From the IMG/VR virus record IMGVR_UViG_2897369580_000003, positions 1 to 38,319 of that record: a stretch of DNA of 38,319 nucleotides; one strand, written 5' to 3'. Under the pieces are notes generated by a model, which was not told the DNA's origin, made no database searches, and saw only the letters and a list, made by a program, of their open reading frames with translations. Below are positions 9,377 through 38,319 of this stretch, piece by piece; position 1 is the stretch's first letter, and every line of letters begins with the position of its first letter. The DNA comes from a virus (Duplodnaviria; Heunggongvirae; Uroviricota; Caudoviricetes). The translations under genes were made by a program, and so were the position numbers.

Positions 9377-9454
9377 GGCACCTTATAAAGCGGGTGCCGG
9401 GCGTGGAAACCCGGAATTCACCAAAGCGCACAACCGCGCTCTTGCGGTTTTTTT
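9377..9454 (+). terminator. Two adjacent stem-loops (GGCACC/GGTGCC 9377-9398; CCGGG/CCCGG 9397-9414) followed by an intrinsic terminator (AACCGC-gctctt-GCGGTT + T7, 9432-9454)
   Basis: Inverted repeats and T-tract read directly; lies in an ORF-poor stretch between the immunity-region genes and Rha. Confidence 0.5.
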
Positions 9455-9623
9455 GTGTCATGAGCAGCATTACGCCCAAATTATGGTGGGGCGTGCAGGG
9501 CCAACTTCGGTTGGGCCGGGTTCTTTGGTGACCGGTATTTCCACCCCTGTACGTCTCACCACCAATAAGGTCGTGGAAAGCCTTGGTGGTGAGTTATTTA
9601 AAATCACCAAAGAGGCTGCCATC

Positions 9624-30705: not shown

Positions 30706-30804
30706 TGTACAAAATGATTAATGTGTTTTTGTCTGGCATAATTTGGGTTTTCAGCTTTAAGTAGTTAATATAATCATTCCTTACAAATGATTGAAGGGAT
30801 GATT

Positions 30805-31299
30805 ATGCGTATCTTTGTTTTTTTTATATCTGCACTTTTATCTTTTAACTTGGCTGCGGAAGAGTGTAAGTTCAGCTTTAATGAGTCAGAATTAATCTCT
30901 TCTATAGGTATTGCGCCAGTTAAGCAAGAGATAATAAAGGATGAAGGAATAACTAAGCGGCAATATGAATTCAGAAGAGAATTATCTTCTGAAGAAATGC
31001 TTAGTGATGACGCTGATGAAAAATATGAGCCGCAGTTTTATATATCTGTTTATAATCCATCATGCCCACAAAAGGTTATTGTTTGGTTTTTCAAAGACAA
31101 TAAAAACACAATGGATTTAAGTAATGAGGTCCTTGCTGGTAGAGCGTTCAAGTATTTAACTGGTGTTAATGAAAGTATTTTTGAAAATAAAATGAAAAAG
31201 TTTTTAAAGGTACAGTCATTTGAATCTTTTGATGAAAGGACAGATTCTAAATTTATAAAGAGTGGTGATATTTATTCCATTGATGTTCAACTCAGATAG
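30805..31299 (+). CDS. AT-rich moron encoding a secreted/periplasmic protein of unknown function (signal peptide, two Cys)
   Basis: Signal peptide MRIFVFFISALLSFNLAA; GAAGGGA RBS before the ATG at 30805 (track ORF starts at 30787); strongly AT-rich compared with flanking tail genes; own terminator. Confidence 0.6.
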   Translation: MRIFVFFISALLSFNLAAEECKFSFNESELISSIGIAPVKQEIIKDEGITKRQYEFRRELSSEEMLSDDADEKYEPQFYISVYNPSCPQKVIVWFFKDNKNTMDLSNEVLAGRAFKYLTGVNESIFENKMKKFLKVQSFESFDERTDSKFIKSGDIYSIDVQLR

Positions 31300-31389: not shown

Positions 31390-32718
31390 ATGACGTGGAA
31401 AGACAGGCTTCAGGATGCGTCATTTCGCGGCGTACCGTTTAAGGTTGAAGAAGAAAGTGCGGGAACCGGTCGCCGTGTGGAAACACACGAATATCCGAAC
31501 CGCGACAAGCCCTATACCGAAGATCTGGGAAAAGTCACTTTCCGCCCGTCCATCACAGCTTATGTGGTGGGAGATGACTGCTTTGACCAGCGCGATCGCC
31601 TGATTGAAGCGCTGAATAAACCCGGTCCCGGCACGCTTGTCCACCCGACATATGGTGAGCTGAAAGTCTGTGTTGACGGGGAAGTTCGGGTCAGCACATC
31701 GAAAAGTGAAGGGCGTATTGTCCGCTTTGACCTGAAGTTTGTCGAAGCAGGAGAACTCTCTTACCCCACATCAGGTGCGGCGACGGCGCAGACGCTGATG
31801 TCATCCTGTTCTGCACTGGATGACTGCATCAGTGACAGCTTCAGCGGTTTCAGTATCGATGGTGTGGCGGATTTCGTGCAGAACGACGTTATCGGTAATG
31901 CCAGCATAATGCTGGGGTATGTTTCTGATGCGATGAAAGTGGTGGATTCTGCCGTATCGGATGCCGCCAGGCTGTTGCAGGGGGATATCTCGGTACTTCT
32001 GCCGCCGCCATCGTCAGGCAAAAATTTCGTTGAGCAGGTGCAGAAAATGTGGCGTACCGGGAAACGCCTTTATGGTAACGCCAGCGACCTGGTCACCATG
32101 ATCAAAACGCTTTCCGGTGTCAGCCTCGGCAGCGATCTGCAACCGCGCGGCGTCTGGAAAACGGACAGTAAAACCACCGCCACGGCGACGCAGCAGCGTA
32201 ACGTGGTTGCCAGCACCCTTCGTACGACCGCAATCAGCGAAGCGGCGTATGCCGTCACCCGATTGCCTGCGCCAACAACTTCCGCGGTGATGCAGAATTC
32301 CGCAGTGGGGCAGGCAACAACACCTGCGCAGAGCACTGGCTGGCCTTCCGTCACGCATCCGGCACTGAACAATGCACCGGCGGTGAAAAACACAGTTGAC
32401 CTGCCGACGTGGGAAGAACTGACTGACATTCGCGACACACTGAATACGGCAATTGATAAGGAGTTGTCCCGTACAACCAGTGATGCGCTGTTTCTGGCGC
32501 TGCGCCGGGTGAAAGCAGATCTGAATGCGGATATCAACACGCGCCTTGAACAGTCTGCACGGATCATTCAGCGCACGCCGGATGAGGTTTTACCCGCGCT
32601 GGTGCTGGCGGCGACCTGGTTTGATAACGCGGCGCGTGACGCGGACATTATCCGGCGTAATGCCATTACGCATCCCGGCTTTGTGCCGGTGATCCCTCTA
32701 AAGGTGCCAGTGCAATGA
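31390..32718 (+). CDS. DNA circulation protein (Mu gp43-like)
   Basis: 442 aa; follows the tape measure as in Mu-like tails. Confidence 0.75.
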   Translation: MTWKDRLQDASFRGVPFKVEEESAGTGRRVETHEYPNRDKPYTEDLGKVTFRPSITAYVVGDDCFDQRDRLIEALNKPGPGTLVHPTYGELKVCVDGEVRVSTSKSEGRIVRFDLKFVEAGELSYPTSGAATAQTLMSSCSALDDCISDSFSGFSIDGVADFVQNDVIGNASIMLGYVSDAMKVVDSAVSDAARLLQGDISVLLPPPSSGKNFVEQVQKMWRTGKRLYGNASDLVTMIKTLSGVSLGSDLQPRGVWKTDSKTTATATQQRNVVASTLRTTAISEAAYAVTRLPAPTTSAVMQNSAVGQATTPAQSTGWPSVTHPALNNAPAVKNTVDLPTWEELTDIRDTLNTAIDKELSRTTSDALFLALRRVKADLNADINTRLEQSARIIQRTPDEVLPALVLAATWFDNAARDADIIRRNAITHPGFVPVIPLKVPVQ

Positions 32719-33794
32719 ACGATAACGTCACGCTACGGGTAAATGGCCGGGAGTGGAATGGCTGGACATCGGTGCGCATCGGTGCCGGTGTTGAACGACT
32801 GGCGCGGGATTTCAGTGTGGAGATCACCCGCCAGTGGCCGGGAGATGAGGGTATCACCACGCTTCAGCCGCGCATTAAAAACGGTTCAAAAGTGGAAGTG
32901 CTGATTGGTGATGAGCTGGTGATCACCGGCTGGGTGGAGGCGACGCCCGTTCGTTACGATGCCCGTTCGGTCAGCACCGGTATTGCCGGACGCAGTCTAA
33001 CCGCTGATCTGATTGACTGTGCAGCCGAACCGACACAGTTTAACGGACGATCGCTGGTACAGATTGCGCAGGCGCTTGCTGCGCCCTTCGGCATTGAGGT
33101 GGTGAACAACGGTGCGCCGTCGGGTGTTATTCCTGACGTCCAGCCTGATCACGGTGAAACGGTGATTGAGGTAATCAACAAAATACTCGGTCAGCAGCAG
33201 GCACTGGCTTACGACGACCCGCACGGCAGGCTGGTGATTGGCGGTATTGGCTCAACGCGGGCACATACCGCGCTGGTACTTGGGGAAAACATCCTTTCCT
33301 GTGATACGGAGAAGAGTATCCGGGAGCGGTTTTCAGTTTACCAGGTGGCGGGGCAGCGTGCCGGAAACGACGATGATTTCGGTGAGGCCACCACCACCGC
33401 GCTGCGGGCCCGCACAGAGGACGCATTTATTGCCCGTTACCGTCCGATGTATATCAGGCAGACAGGGCAGGCCACGGGGGCAGGCTGTATTGCGCGTGCT
33501 GACTTTGAAGCCCGACAACGGGCGGCGCGGACGGATGAAACCACCTATGTGGTGCAGGGCTGGCGACAGGGTAACGGTACGCTGTGGCAGCCCAACCAGC
33601 GGGTGATTGTCTTTGATCCGGTCTGTGGTTTCGACAATACCGAACTGCTTGTTTCGGAAGTCACGTTTACTCAGGACCAGAACGGCACCCTGACGGAAAT
33701 CCGTGTCGGCCCGCCTGATGCTTATCTGCCTGAACCCGAAGATCCCGGCGCGCGGAAAAAGAAAAAAGCCAGAGTACAGGAGGACCCGTTCTGA
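32715..33794 (+). CDS. Baseplate hub protein (Mu gp44 / phage protein D-like)
   Basis: 359 aa; position in the Mu-like baseplate module. Confidence 0.7.
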   Translation: MNDNVTLRVNGREWNGWTSVRIGAGVERLARDFSVEITRQWPGDEGITTLQPRIKNGSKVEVLIGDELVITGWVEATPVRYDARSVSTGIAGRSLTADLIDCAAEPTQFNGRSLVQIAQALAAPFGIEVVNNGAPSGVIPDVQPDHGETVIEVINKILGQQQALAYDDPHGRLVIGGIGSTRAHTALVLGENILSCDTEKSIRERFSVYQVAGQRAGNDDDFGEATTTALRARTEDAFIARYRPMYIRQTGQATGAGCIARADFEARQRAARTDETTYVVQGWRQGNGTLWQPNQRVIVFDPVCGFDNTELLVSEVTFTQDQNGTLTEIRVGPPDAYLPEPEDPGARKKKKARVQEDPF

Positions 33795-34342
33795 TGAGGG
33801 CGATTGAAACCATACAGCGACAACTCCTCGGGCTGATTGGGCGGGCCGTGGTGAAAAGCATCAGTGCCGCAACGAAATGTCAGACCGTGGATGTGTCCCT
33901 GATTGCCGGTGAACCCAAAGCCGGGGTTGAACATCTTGAACCTTACGGTTTTACCGCAAGGGCAAACAGCGGTGCGGAAGCGGTGGTGTTGTTTCCGGAT
34001 GGCGACCGTTCTCATGCGGTGGTTGTTACGGTGTCGGATCGGCGTTACCGCCTGAAAGGGCTGCAGACGGGTGAGGTGGCTGTCTATGACGATCAGGGGC
34101 AGTCCGTGACGCTGACCCGGGAGGGGATCGTGGTGGACGGTGCAGGTAAAACGATCACGTTTCGCAATTCACCTAAAGCACGTTTTGAAATGGACCTGGA
34201 AGTGACAGGACAAGTGAAAGACCTGTGCGACTCCAGCGGCACCACCATGTCAGCGATGCGGCTTGCCTATAACGGGCATCGTCACAGAGAGAACGGTCAG
34301 GGCAGTAACACCGACAAACCTGATAAAGCGATGGAGGCATGA
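33794..34342 (+). CDS. Baseplate spike / assembly protein (Mu gp45-like)
   Basis: 182 aa; position. Confidence 0.65.
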   Translation: MRAIETIQRQLLGLIGRAVVKSISAATKCQTVDVSLIAGEPKAGVEHLEPYGFTARANSGAEAVVLFPDGDRSHAVVVTVSDRRYRLKGLQTGEVAVYDDQGQSVTLTREGIVVDGAGKTITFRNSPKARFEMDLEVTGQVKDLCDSSGTTMSAMRLAYNGHRHRENGQGSNTDKPDKAMEA

Positions 34343-34767
34343 TGGAACTGTGGCTGACGGTGAACGGTAAACGCACCTGCGCCAGCGCACCGCTGGATCC
34401 GCTGACCCGCGCCGTGGTGATTTCCCTGTTTACCTGGCGGCGGGCGGAGCCTGATGACAACGCCGACGTCCCGATGGGATGGTGGGGGGATACCTGGCCT
34501 GCGGTACAGAATGACCGTTACGGCTCCCGACTGTGGCTGCTTCAGCGCAGCAAACTGACCAATCAGCTGGTGCAGACGGTAAGGGGGTATATCCGCGAAT
34601 GCCTGCAATGGATGATTGATGATGGCGTGGTGTCCCGTATTGATCTGGATATCCGCCGCACCGGGATTAATGAACTGGGTAACAGTATCACTCTCTGGCG
34701 TCGTGACGGACCGGTAATGATTTCTTTTGATGATCTGTGGAGTGCGATAACGCATGGCGGACAGTGA
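34339..34767 (+). CDS. GP46-family baseplate protein
   Basis: 142 aa; position. Confidence 0.65.
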   Translation: MMELWLTVNGKRTCASAPLDPLTRAVVISLFTWRRAEPDDNADVPMGWWGDTWPAVQNDRYGSRLWLLQRSKLTNQLVQTVRGYIRECLQWMIDDGVVSRIDLDIRRTGINELGNSITLWRRDGPVMISFDDLWSAITHGGQ

Positions 34768-35812
34768 ATTTCAGCGCCCGACGCTGGCAGAAAATATCAG
34801 TATGCTCCGTAACGATTTATTCGCCAGGCTGGACGTCAGCGACACGCTCCGGCGCATGGATGAAGACGTGCGGGCAAAGGTGTATGCGGCGGCGCTGCAT
34901 ACGGTTTACGGGTACATCGATTATCTGGCAATGAATATGCTGCCTGACCTGTGCGATGAGTCCTGGCTGGCGCGACATGCTGCGATGAAACGGTGTCCGC
35001 GCAAGGGGGCCACGGCTGCCAGCGGGTATATGCGCTGGGAAGGTGTCAGCGATGGCCTGAAGGTGACCGCCGGAAGTGTTATTCAGCGCGATGACCTGGT
35101 TCAGTACACGGCAACTGCCGATGCAATCAGCACCGGTGGTGTCCTGCGCGTGCCGATCGCCTGCTCAAGTGCAGGAGCGGTCGGTAACGCTGACGACGGT
35201 ACGGCATTAATCCTGGTCACGCCGGTGAATGGGCTGCCGTCTTCCGGTGTGGCTGACACCCTGACAGGCGGATTTGATACTGAAGAGCTGGAAACGTGGC
35301 GCGTCCGTGTCATTGAGCGGTATTACTGGACGCCGCAGGGCGGGGCTGACGGGGACTATGTCGTCTGGGCTAAAGAAGTGCCCGGCATTACCCGCGCATG
35401 GACATACCGTCACTGGATGGGAACGGGAACTGTCGGTGTGATGATTGCCAGCAGTGACCTGATTAACCCCATTCCGGAAGAATCAACGGAAATGGCGGCA
35501 AGACAACATATCGAGCCACTGGCCCCGGTGGCAGGCTCTGATTTGTATGTATTCAGGCCGGTGGCACATACGGTGGATTTTCATATCCGCGTGACGCCGG
35601 ACACACCGGAAATACGAGCCGCCATTACTGCGGAGTTGCGTTCGTTCCTGCTGCGTGATGGTTATCCGCAGGGAGAACTGAAGGTGTCGCGTATCAGTGA
35701 AGCGATTTCCGGTGCGAACGGGGAATACAGCCATCAGTTGCTTGCACCGGCGGACAATATCTCCATTGCAAAAAATGAACTGGCGGTTCTGGGGACGATT
35801 TTATGGACGTGA
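34754..35812 (+). CDS. Baseplate J-like protein (Mu gp47-like)
   Basis: 352 aa; position. Confidence 0.75.
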
Positions 35813-36387
35813 CAAACGATGATTACATCCGTCTGTTGTCGGCACTGCTGCCGCCAGGTCCGGCGTGGCCAGCCAGCGATCCGGCGATTGCCGGTGCAGC
35901 ACCGTCATTAACCCGTGTTCATCAGCGTGCGGATGCCCTGATGCGGGAGCTGGATCCGCGCACCACCACCGAACTGATAAATCGCTGGGAGCGTCTGTGC
36001 GGCCTGCCGGATGAATGTATTCCCGCAGGGACACAGACCCTTCGCCAGCGTCAGCAACGGCTGGATGCGAAGGTTAACCTGGCGGGCGGCATCAACGAGG
36101 ATTTTTATCTTGCACAGCTTGCTGCCCTGGGCAGACCAGATGCCACCATCACGCGATACGACAAAAGCACCTTCACCTGCTCATCGGCCTGTACTGACGC
36201 GGTGAATGCGCCGGAATGGCGGTATTACTGGCAGGTCAACATGCCAGCCGCCACCAACACCACCTGGATGACATGTGGCGATTCCTGTGATTCCGCACTG
36301 CGTATCTGGGGCGACACCGTTGTCGAGTGTGTGCTTAACAAACTCTGCCCTTCGCATACCTACGTAATTTTTAAATATCCGGAGTAA
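35803..36387 (+). CDS. Tail protein (Mu gp48-like, DUF2313-type)
   Basis: 194 aa; position between baseplate J and the fibre. Confidence 0.6.
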
Positions 36388-36390
36388 TCC

Positions 36391-38319
36391 ATGCATCGTA
36401 TAGACACGAAAACCGCGCAGAAGGATAAGTTCGGCGCGGGTAAGAACGGTTTTACCCGTGGTAACCCCCAGACCGGCACACCTGCCACCGATCTGGATGA
36501 TGACTACTTTGACATGTTGCAGGAAGAACTTTGTAGCGTGGTGGAGGCCTCCGGTGCCAGCCTGGAGAAGGAGCGGCACGACCAGTTGCTTACCGCGCTT
36601 CGTGCGCTGCTGTTAAGCCGCAAGAATCCGTTTGGTGATATCAAATCGGACGGCACAGTACCAACGGCTCTCGAAAACCTTGGATTTACAGACCCGGATG
36701 ACGGGGATTCCCTGGTAGCAGTTAAACAGGACCTGGAGAATGCTGTTATCCGAAATCAGCACGACAAAAACGCAGAGATTATTAGTGTGAGGGATTTTGG
36801 GGCTATCGGTGACGGTATTGCTGACGACACTGCGGCGATACAGCGGGCAATTGACTCGGTTCCGGCAGGATCGCGACTGGGATTCTGGAGAGGAAAGTAT
36901 TTGTTCGACACTGTAACGTTGTCAAAACCCATTGTTCTGGTGGGAGATGCAGACCTGGTTCACAACGGATTCGTTATAAAATCAAGTAATATAACATCGT
37001 TATTAACGGGCATGCAGACCTGTCGTGAATACCATCATTCAGCCAGGGCGTTTTCGTGTAATGCCCACCAGGACTTATCTGACTACAAAAATATAAAAAT
37101 CCTGTTCAACAAGTTTGCGGGTTTTTTCTACGCAACTGATATAACAGCCAGGGATTACGATGCGATGTCTGACAATCCGGATAATCGAGTTGTCAGTGAT
37201 ACCCTGATACTTGGTTGTACGTCAGTAGCCCCTGAGGGTGTAAACGCCGGGCACTTTCAGCATATAGGGGTAACCAACGCAAAGTGCGTCGGCAATTCAA
37301 CGCACGGAGGGAAAAACGCGACCTCATACAATTTTATCAACGGGAACGGATATCTGATTGTTCAGGGTAATTACGATTACGGAAATACTTATGGCTCCTG
37401 TGAGGTTGAAAACGATTCCAGTAATACAGTAATTTCCGGGAACGCATTCAGGGGCAAAATCTGGATTGATGACAGCAGCAACGTCACTGTCAACGGAAAC
37501 ACCGTTAACGACGACATTTTGATTACGTCCCAGACTGACGATGTGCGAAACGTTCTGGTTGCAGGGAATACGGCCAAACGAATAGTCGTTCAGCAATTTG
37601 GAGACGAACCTGTCGGCTGGGCATACGATTGTCATATACAGGGAAATCTGACAACGGGTAATCTGGAATACGAACACGATATTCTGTTGTCGTCACTGAT
37701 TAGCGGAACAGTGGAAAATAATCGCCTGAACGGAGAATCGAAATATTCTATTGGTATTATACGTCATCACAATACGGACCTGATAATACGTAACAATACC
37801 GGGAAACGAGAAGCCATTATTTCTGGTAGTGGCGGAAGAATAATCGATTACGCAAATATAGGTTTTAATGTATTTACTCAGTCAGACAGTCGACACATTT
37901 CCACACTATTGACCCCGGTGTCGGATTATCTTGATTTACCAGGAAAATACTTGCACGGAACTAAATACGCCGGACAACTGATACCAGGCGGGAATACTGT
38001 TATTTTGCTACCAGTACCAGATGTAAAAAACTTAGTTTTCAGGGCGATATCGCTGTGGGTGCTAATCCGTGACCCTGCAAATAACAATATATCCAGCTAC
38101 AGAATTGATGGGGTTTTCAAGGTTGTAGGTTCATACGTGTCAATAAGTTTTGGAGCTCCTTATTCAGTTCTGGGAGTCGATTCCGGATTTGTGACCGTTG
38201 CGAACCAGGGAAGCACAACAACAGCCATCATGCTGAGCATAACGAATACCCACGAAACGAAAAATCTGCAAGTTACGCTGCTGCCAGCAGTTACCAGCAG
38301 ATTTGGGCTGGACGATTAA
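36391..38319 (+). CDS. Tail fibre / tailspike with a conserved N-terminal anchor and a pectate-lyase-like beta-helix (putative polysaccharide depolymerase) C-terminal part
   Basis: 642 aa; N-terminus [21 protein letters not shown] typical of Mu/P2-type fibre anchors; [23 protein letters not shown] signature of pectate-lyase-fold tailspikes; C-terminal two-thirds visibly more AT-rich. Confidence 0.75.

Follow-up and report, generated by a model that had tools for sequence, protein, structure and literature searches.

An acquired tailspike cassette on an SfV/StfP-type baseplate anchor in an Escherichia coli prophage

The stretch of DNA analysed here, called the window, comprises the whole 38,319 nucleotides (nt) of IMG/VR record IMGVR_UViG_2897369580_000003 (positions 1 to 38,319). 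It is an E. coli prophage with an integrase gene at 386-1609 and an early region of the lambdoid type. Its last gene, at 36391-38319, probably codes for the receptor-binding protein, a tailspike, of a temperate SfV-type phage whose contractile tail is Mu-like; in this protein, an acquired cassette sits on a standard anchor. We put the probability of this reading at about 0.75. The open reading frame (ORF) begins with the ATG at 36391, 3 nt past the stop codon of a gp48-like gene, and ends with the TAA at 38317-38319. Residues 1-99 are the usual anchor, by which the protein would be plugged into the gp47/gp48 wedge of the baseplate. An acquired cassette of 1.64 kb starts at codon 97-100 and is predicted to form a short neck, a beta-helix of about 360 residues and a C-terminal beta-sandwich.

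Module boundaries and horizontal exchange

The head and contractile-tail operon of the window is 97% identical to that of the Shigella phages SfII, SfI, SfIV and SfV, and the match stops at 36687. Directly upstream of the last gene, Pfam identifies a Baseplate_J gene (E = 3.6e-52) and then a Mu gp48-type gene (E = 4.6e-27). Nucleotides 1-297 of the last gene are 94-95% identical to the fibre genes of SfV, SfI, SfII and SfIV. With stfP/ycfK of the K-12 element e14 included, DNA identity over the first 99 codons is 94-98%, and these genes occupy the same place after the gp48-like gene. In a megablast search of 5426 complete E. coli genomes, nt 1-297 were present in 1561 (29%), e14 among them, which bears out the conserved N-terminal anchor proposed in the initial annotation. 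Hits were sampled at regular intervals, and 55 of the 59 partial matches in this sample break off at nt 297; this fixed end identifies nt 297 as a general junction between anchor and tip. The gene beyond the anchor is present in only 12 of the 5426 genomes, as the whole gene in 11 and on a P2-like fibre in one.

The P2-like case locates the crossover. In strain 51489, nt 287-1929 of the gene are found at 98.8% identity as the C-terminal two-thirds of an 805-residue fibre of a P2-like prophage. The 11-nt sequence ACCTTGGATTT is common to the SfII, P2-like and window sequences, and it is here that similarity to SfII ends and similarity to the P2-like fibre begins; recombination occurred at this conserved "ENLG" junction. 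The P2-like copy differs from the copy in the SfV-like prophage of OW967003 at a single nucleotide in 1638, which points to a very recent transfer between the two phage types. In addition, the SfV-like prophages that bear the fusion occupy at least three attachment sites, adjoining prfC, dusA or yfhH, so that the fusion also circulates among prophages with different integration modules. The horizontal swap suggested earlier is therefore confirmed by the same module at near-identity on another fibre, and relatives at 47-54% identity are found on P22 head-binding, PF18668 and G7C-type anchors. The cassette moves between SfV-like and P2-like prophages, with more distant versions on P22-like, G7C-like and other anchors. 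A 759-residue database protein (P0002) is 99% identical over 70% of the module and has an annotated N-terminal DNA-circularisation domain (PF07157); it may represent a deletion fusion or else an artefact of assembly.

The right-hand end of the cassette lies just outside the window and was read in a genome that is 100% identical to it. Here, the tailspike gene is followed by a 23-nt inverted repeat, a 54-codon invertase remnant, a DinI gene and the chromosomal prfC. Of the serine invertase domains, the remnant matches HTH_7 alone (E = 3.6e-11), and no Tfa chaperone gene is found 3' of the tailspike gene in this identical context. The SfII counterpart is a fibre of 216 residues followed by a Tfa gene. 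SfII-type fibres have such short tips, which need the Tfa chaperone, whereas the window has a tailspike cassette with only the helix-turn-helix end of the invertase left; e14 has an invertible segment with the Pin invertase. In the P2-like locus, the shared DNA reaches about 70-115 nt past the stop codon and gives way to a different invertase remnant. Only the HTH_7 C-terminal end of an invertase is kept in both the SfV-like (L001:8022-8186) and the P2-like locus (L002:7717-7875), and the two sequences differ. As both loci retain such a remnant, the cassette landed in former invertible fibre loci, where it displaced the fibre tip, the Tfa chaperone gene and the catalytic part, that is most, of the invertase gene.

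The inverted repeat itself is 91% complementary with a 20-nt loop and lies 9-74 nt past the last base of the window (L001:7938-8003). As the P2-like locus keeps it too, the repeat moves together with the cassette, and it could act as a terminator-like hairpin or as a site of recombination.

Base composition changes along the same gene (Table 1), the anchor having a GC content at third codon positions (0.616) that resembles that of the tail operon. The module has an overall GC content of 0.45, and its GC content at third codon positions (GC3) is 0.455 (n = 543), compared with 0.614 in the upstream tail genes and anchor (n = 1776; chi2 = 42.7, p = 6.5e-11). A two-segment maximum-likelihood analysis of 31390-38319 placed the change point at 36882 with a log-likelihood ratio of 38.8, the best of 200 shuffles reaching 6.4. 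Composition is thus not uniform, and the statement of the initial annotation that the module is richer in AT than the anchor holds, synonymous sites included. The region to which it was tied needs adjusting: the clear drop starts at about 36890, and the motif quoted as AT-rich (36787-36855) sits in the neck and cap, which are of intermediate GC. Homology breaks earlier, at 36677-36687, about 200 nt upstream of the change point in composition.

The AT-richness of the module might be a by-product of amino-acid composition or of chance and have nothing to do with foreign origin. Beta-helix proteins are rich in Asn, Ile and Ser, and low GC is not special to the tailspike module, since 10.6% of the window's 1632-nt windows have a GC content of 0.451 or less; the other low-GC stretches are mostly the early region and a small insert at 30.6-31.4 kb. 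Because equally AT-rich stretches occur elsewhere, composition alone would not prove foreign origin, and the conclusion of a swap is drawn from the comparative evidence and not from composition by itself. The by-product explanation has next to no probability, however: the shift is equally large at third codon positions, the change point far exceeds every shuffle, and it is already contradicted by the presence of the same module DNA on a different phage backbone.

Two other AT-rich ORFs of the window were recorded. One, at 30787-31299 (GC 0.316, 170 residues), lies between the tape-measure and DNA-circularisation genes, has no Pfam match, matches phrog_8976 (no known function) and looks like an accessory gene (moron) inserted into the tail operon. 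The second, at 1896-2615 (239 residues, region GC about 0.34), adjoins the integrase gene, has no Pfam match and matches phrog_8440 (no known function).

Fold, relatives and candidate active site

Residues 97-642 were modelled as a monomer with AlphaFold2 from 14 aligned homologues (mean predicted local distance difference test score, pLDDT, 75.7). In the model, a helical neck precedes a right-handed parallel beta-helix, and a beta-sandwich forms the C-terminus. Pfam PF12708 (Pect-lyase_RHGA_epim) matches residues 130-341 with E = 8.9e-9 and 35.9 bits, against a gathering cut-off of 27. When the model was compared with the PDB using Foldseek, the best match was the Sf6 tailspike (E = 1.6e-9), and Acinetobacter, CBA120, Klebsiella, phi92 and HK620 tailspikes ranked next. 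The nearest viral structure in BFVD is the 945-residue fibre of St11Ph5 (E = 8.6e-43, 44% identity). The pectate-lyase-like beta-helix of the initial annotation is thus recovered by the Pfam profile, the model and the structural comparison alike. At the sequence level, solved structures match no further than the neck and cap, even when a family profile is used; residues 101-161 match the Sf6 tailspike with E = 3.5e-13.

The low confidence of the neck is expected if a trimeric coiled coil is modelled as a monomer, and the predicted helix is compatible with such a coil. By analogy with the Sf6, HK620 and P22 tailspikes, the protein would most likely be a homotrimer. No Pfam match to Peptidase_S74, the C-terminal intramolecular chaperone, was found at E <= 0.1.

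These properties bear on what the protein should be called. Like tailspikes, it combines a separate anchor module with an exchangeable receptor-binding domain, its central domain is a right-handed parallel beta-helix in the AlphaFold2 model, and it lacks a downstream Tfa gene, as is expected of a protein that folds without a separate assembly chaperone gene. The anchor is that of the StfP family; the fibre-type tip and cognate Tfa of that family are replaced by a beta-helical C-terminus with no Tfa gene. The protein had been described as a tail fibre with a depolymerase-like domain, and while the structural side of that description stands, "tailspike" is the better name.

A search of 1.84 billion representative proteins gave 4673 matches, only 33 of them at E <= 1e-30. 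Among the 150 matches listed, most of the weaker ones align only to the neck and cap (module residues 4-91), which are common to thousands of tailspikes. The protein is therefore built in three layers, of which the anchor is very common, the neck and cap are widely shared, and the helix with the C-terminal domain is rare and specific. Relatives that cover the full module at 52-54% identity are joined to the P22 head-binding domain PF09008 (a 663-residue "phage tailspike protein"), to PF18668 and to other N-termini. Phage isolates with relatives at 45-54% identity include phiv142-3, EC.W1-9, fBC-Eco01, St11Ph5 and several Aeromonas phages, and Arthrobacter minor tail proteins are 34-41% identical over about half of the module.

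Known systems share parts of this design. The Sf6, HK620 and P22 tailspikes, O-antigen endoglycosidases of P22-like podoviruses, have the same neck, beta-helix and beta-sandwich architecture. They are anchored by the P22 head-binding domain, whereas the window protein has an SfV/Mu-type baseplate anchor, and its helix body is only about 14% identical to that of Sf6; the catalytic residues cannot be aligned by sequence. The receptor-binding protein of the Uetakevirus phiv142-3 and the 663-residue tailspike of P22-like prophages (together module B) are homologous from neck to C-terminus, at 54% identity over 96-99% of the module. Module B is carried on the P22 head-binding (PF09008) or another anchor, in podovirus or other prophages, and its specificity may differ at 46% divergence. 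The 945-residue branched fibre of St11Ph5, a virulent, G7C-like podovirus related to N4, is 47% identical over 99% of the module (tblastn); its gp66-type N-terminus also carries a second tailspike.

Across 30 homologues at 24-54% identity, the polar residues E340, N341, D360 and D361 are invariant together with an Asn ladder, and E338, D329, H288 and Q290 are nearly so. The Sf6, HK620 and P22 tailspikes and the GH28 enzymes work by acidic pairs on adjacent rungs. As D360-D361 lie one rung after E340, the acids E338/E340 and D360/D361 are proposed as the candidate active site, for either hydrolase or lyase chemistry. The trimer would then bind an E. coli surface polysaccharide along the helix and cleave it through these residues, and cleavage would bring the baseplate down to the outer membrane. 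In the literature on St11Ph5, Mimir124 and phiv142-3, no biochemical data on this tailspike family were found. Alternatively, the beta-helix might be a non-catalytic adhesin that binds a glycan or a protein without cutting it. This is unlikely, as E340, D360 and D361 do not vary even among homologues with as little as 24% identity, which is what an active site should show, and as the nearest structural class in Foldseek is that of enzymatically active tailspikes.

Table 1. Features and composition of the tailspike gene and the tail genes before it (positions in the window)
Feature	Position	Strand	GC; GC3	Basis
Seven upstream tail genes	31390-36387		0.56-0.58; 0.60-0.65	
Ribosome-binding site GGAG, 6 nt before ATG, overlapping the end of the gp48-like baseplate gene	36381-36384	+		Read from sequence
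Tailspike/tail-fibre ORF, complete, 642 residues	36391-38319	+		ORF list; stop codon is the last triplet of the window
Baseplate-anchor module, residues 1-99, StfP/SfV-type fibre N-terminus	36391-36687	+	0.545; 0.616	Identity to SfV-group fibres; GC3
Left crossover interval ACCTTGGATTT, codons N96-L97-G98-F99, "ENLG" motif	36677-36687	+		Three-way DNA alignment; megablast boundaries 1-297 / 287-1929
Neck and cap, composition segment	36688-36891		0.529; 0.50	
Neck, residues 102-124, predicted alpha-helix, low model confidence	36694-36762	+		AlphaFold2, module residues 6-28
Right-handed parallel beta-helix body, residues 130-486 (predicted)	36778-37848	+		AlphaFold2, pLDDT mostly 80-95
Beta-helix cap motif, residues 133-155 (quoted in the initial annotation)	36787-36855	+		Start of Pfam PF12708 match
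Beta-helix, composition segment	36892-37848		0.441; 0.464	
E338-V339-E340-N341 in YGSCEVEN, candidate catalytic acids	37402-37413	+		30-homologue alignment; codons checked
D360-D361 in WIDDSSN, candidate catalytic acids	37468-37473	+		30-homologue alignment; codons checked
C-terminal part, composition segment	37849-38316		0.440; 0.417	
Family-invariant linker motif, residues 513-526, between beta-helix and C-terminal domain	37927-37968	+		(Nearly) invariant in 14-sequence alignment
C-terminal beta-sandwich, residues 523-632 (predicted)	37957-38286	+		AlphaFold2 strands, module residues 427-536, pLDDT 60-85

Host O-antigens and the target glycan

O-antigen clusters were located in four carriers, and the wzy genes of O5 and O1 were searched for across all genomes. 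XH993, B-JRPT-4119 and VTB96816v have the O5 cluster, IR53017 and CUVET19-970 the O1 cluster, ATCC BAA-2469 a cluster of the O25 family, and strain 1428 a fourth, unnamed cluster. The untyped carriers are TUM12368 (the fetched region ended short of the cluster), KE51, BroCaecum-55, OW967003 and 51489. At least 5 of the 12 carriers are O5 or O1, where 0.28 would be expected, but the set of carriers is partly clonal. The repeat units of O5 and O1 are chemically unrelated. As the host clusters are unrelated, no receptor can be named, and an attempt to read the substrate from host serotype was given up: at least four cluster types and an O5/O1 excess confounded by clonality yielded no assignable substrate.

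Module B, the 54%-identical paralogue, was found in 37 genomes, of which many are O1 or O5; in 5 of the 12 carrier genomes, it co-resides with the window's gene. One such paralogous tailspike, in XH993 (NZ_CP019361.1 1466559-1468928), is on a P22-like prophage and is interrupted by IS1. Separately, three of the four O-antigen clusters inspected are damaged (L005:9632-10329; L011:17941-19003; L013:23732-26121): XH993 has an IS1 between galF and rfbB, BAA-2469 a gene with a frameshift, and strain 1428 an IS1 and a truncated flippase gene. Carriers with damaged clusters may be rough or semi-rough.

A surface polysaccharide is a plausible target, as the initial annotation supposed, and the O-antigen is not established as that target. 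In the classical case, the module would be a serogroup-specific O-antigen endoglycosidase, and the variety of host O-types would reflect O-antigen switching or loss after lysogeny. In P22-like and related temperate phages, the tailspike usually corresponds to the O-antigen of the host (PMC10408124), the excess of O5 and O1 agrees with this, and the cluster lesions fit a later change of O-antigen. This explanation is nevertheless rather improbable. Copies at least 99% identical occur in O5, O1, O25-family and fourth-cluster hosts, and clonality confounds the enrichment. The phiv142-3 receptor-binding protein subtype is found in O5, O1, O102 and O51 hosts, and Pas et al. place it with those subtypes whose target is probably not the O-antigen but another structure such as a K antigen (PMC10408124); like the window's module, module B thus occurs in several serogroups, O5 and O1 included. 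Further, St11Ph5, with its 47%-identical module, infects independently of the O-antigen: resistant mutants have an unchanged lipopolysaccharide profile, and the phage acts on rough strains (PMC6393563).

One particular O-antigen is therefore probably not the target, and a glycan common to different serogroups is no less likely than a specific O-antigen. Tentatively, and with more doubt than confidence, we suggest that the tailspike family made up of the module, its phiv142-3-type paralogue and the St11Ph5 fibre may recognise and degrade a serogroup-independent E. coli surface glycan, such as enterobacterial common antigen, colanic acid, a core-linked or other exopolysaccharide, or a shared K antigen. 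If true, this would explain the near-identical copies in O5, O1, O25 and other hosts, the two paralogues in the same genomes and the O-antigen-independent infection by St11Ph5. The cassette would then be a depolymerase receptor-binding protein of unusually broad host range, which passes almost unchanged between SfV-like and P2-like prophages.

Variation between copies is concentrated toward the C-terminus. Five copies of the module have only 21 variable sites in 1638 nt and fall into two alleles, between which 12-15 nonsynonymous and 2-4 synonymous differences were counted. Copies agree throughout the first 814 nt save at one singleton site; between the window and the P2-like copy, 15 of 19 differences lie in the last 468 nt, 11 of these 15 being nonsynonymous. 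The ratio of nonsynonymous to synonymous changes per site (pN/pS) between the two alleles is about 1.1-1.9, on the small number of 14-19 substitutions. This pattern is compatible with diversifying selection on the distal domain.

Several of these points weigh against reading the gene as a glycan-degrading tailspike. The pN/pS ratio is also compatible with relaxed constraint in a resident prophage, and the hosts carry unrelated O-antigen clusters of at least four types. In addition, the model is that of a monomer built from only 14 aligned sequences, in which the neck and the linker (residues 487-520) are poorly modelled.

Annotation of the locus and meaning of the exchange

In all 11 RefSeq genomes with the whole gene, the Prokaryotic Genome Annotation Pipeline (PGAP) splits the locus into an "stfP pseudogene" and a "glycoside hydrolase family 55 (GH55) protein", the coding sequence of which starts at an internal GTG (V133). 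The GH55 label and the split follow from the confinement of PDB matches to the neck and cap. If RefSeq were right, a truncated stfP pseudogene would be followed by a separate cellular gene for a GH55 beta-1,3-glucanase. The annotation is consistent across these genomes, and GH55 structures are the top sequence-profile matches in the PDB; even so, this is hardly credible and is already contradicted. The reading frame is unbroken from 36391 to 38319, and its product matches phrog_20231 ("tail protein") end to end (E = 0). The GH55 structures 5m5z and 3eqn align to nothing but the cap motif of about 60 residues. GH55 enzymes have two tandem beta-helix domains that form the active site, whereas the model predicts one beta-helix and a beta-sandwich. 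E. coli is not known to make beta-1,3-glucan. The name GH55 was rejected, as was GH28, the name given to a 709-residue paralogue: Pfam at E <= 0.1 returned only PF12708 and a sub-threshold PF12218, and GH28 structures match only the cap, which is also the sole part that matches GH55, AlgE and PfbA in the PDB. An identical 642-residue E. coli protein (P0001) has been recorded as hypothetical.

Scans with Rfam and for tRNA genes gave no match within or beside the tailspike gene at 36391-38319. Elsewhere in the window, at 9378-9566, Rfam places isrK (67 bits) and C4 antisense RNA (83.6 bits) in tandem, an antisense immunity element of the P1/P7 type.

The host range of a phage is set by its receptor-binding proteins, and these are what is exchanged in the engineering of phages for therapy or diagnostics. 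Mosaic depolymerase receptor-binding proteins are already well established, and the present gene is a clean but ordinary case of how phages may change host range; the tailspike itself is a new, uncharacterised example. The swap moved a 1.64-kb cassette between two unrelated contractile-tail prophage types, and it is precisely mapped, with an 11-nt crossover interval at a junction that 29% of complete E. coli genomes share. This junction could provide a design rule by which tailspikes are grafted onto baseplates of the SfV/Mu or P2 type. The analysis also corrects a systematic mis-annotation in RefSeq, in which a single gene is recorded as a pseudogene and a "GH55" protein. Finally, it draws attention to an uncharacterised tailspike family, the cross-serogroup distribution of which suggests a receptor other than the O-antigen.

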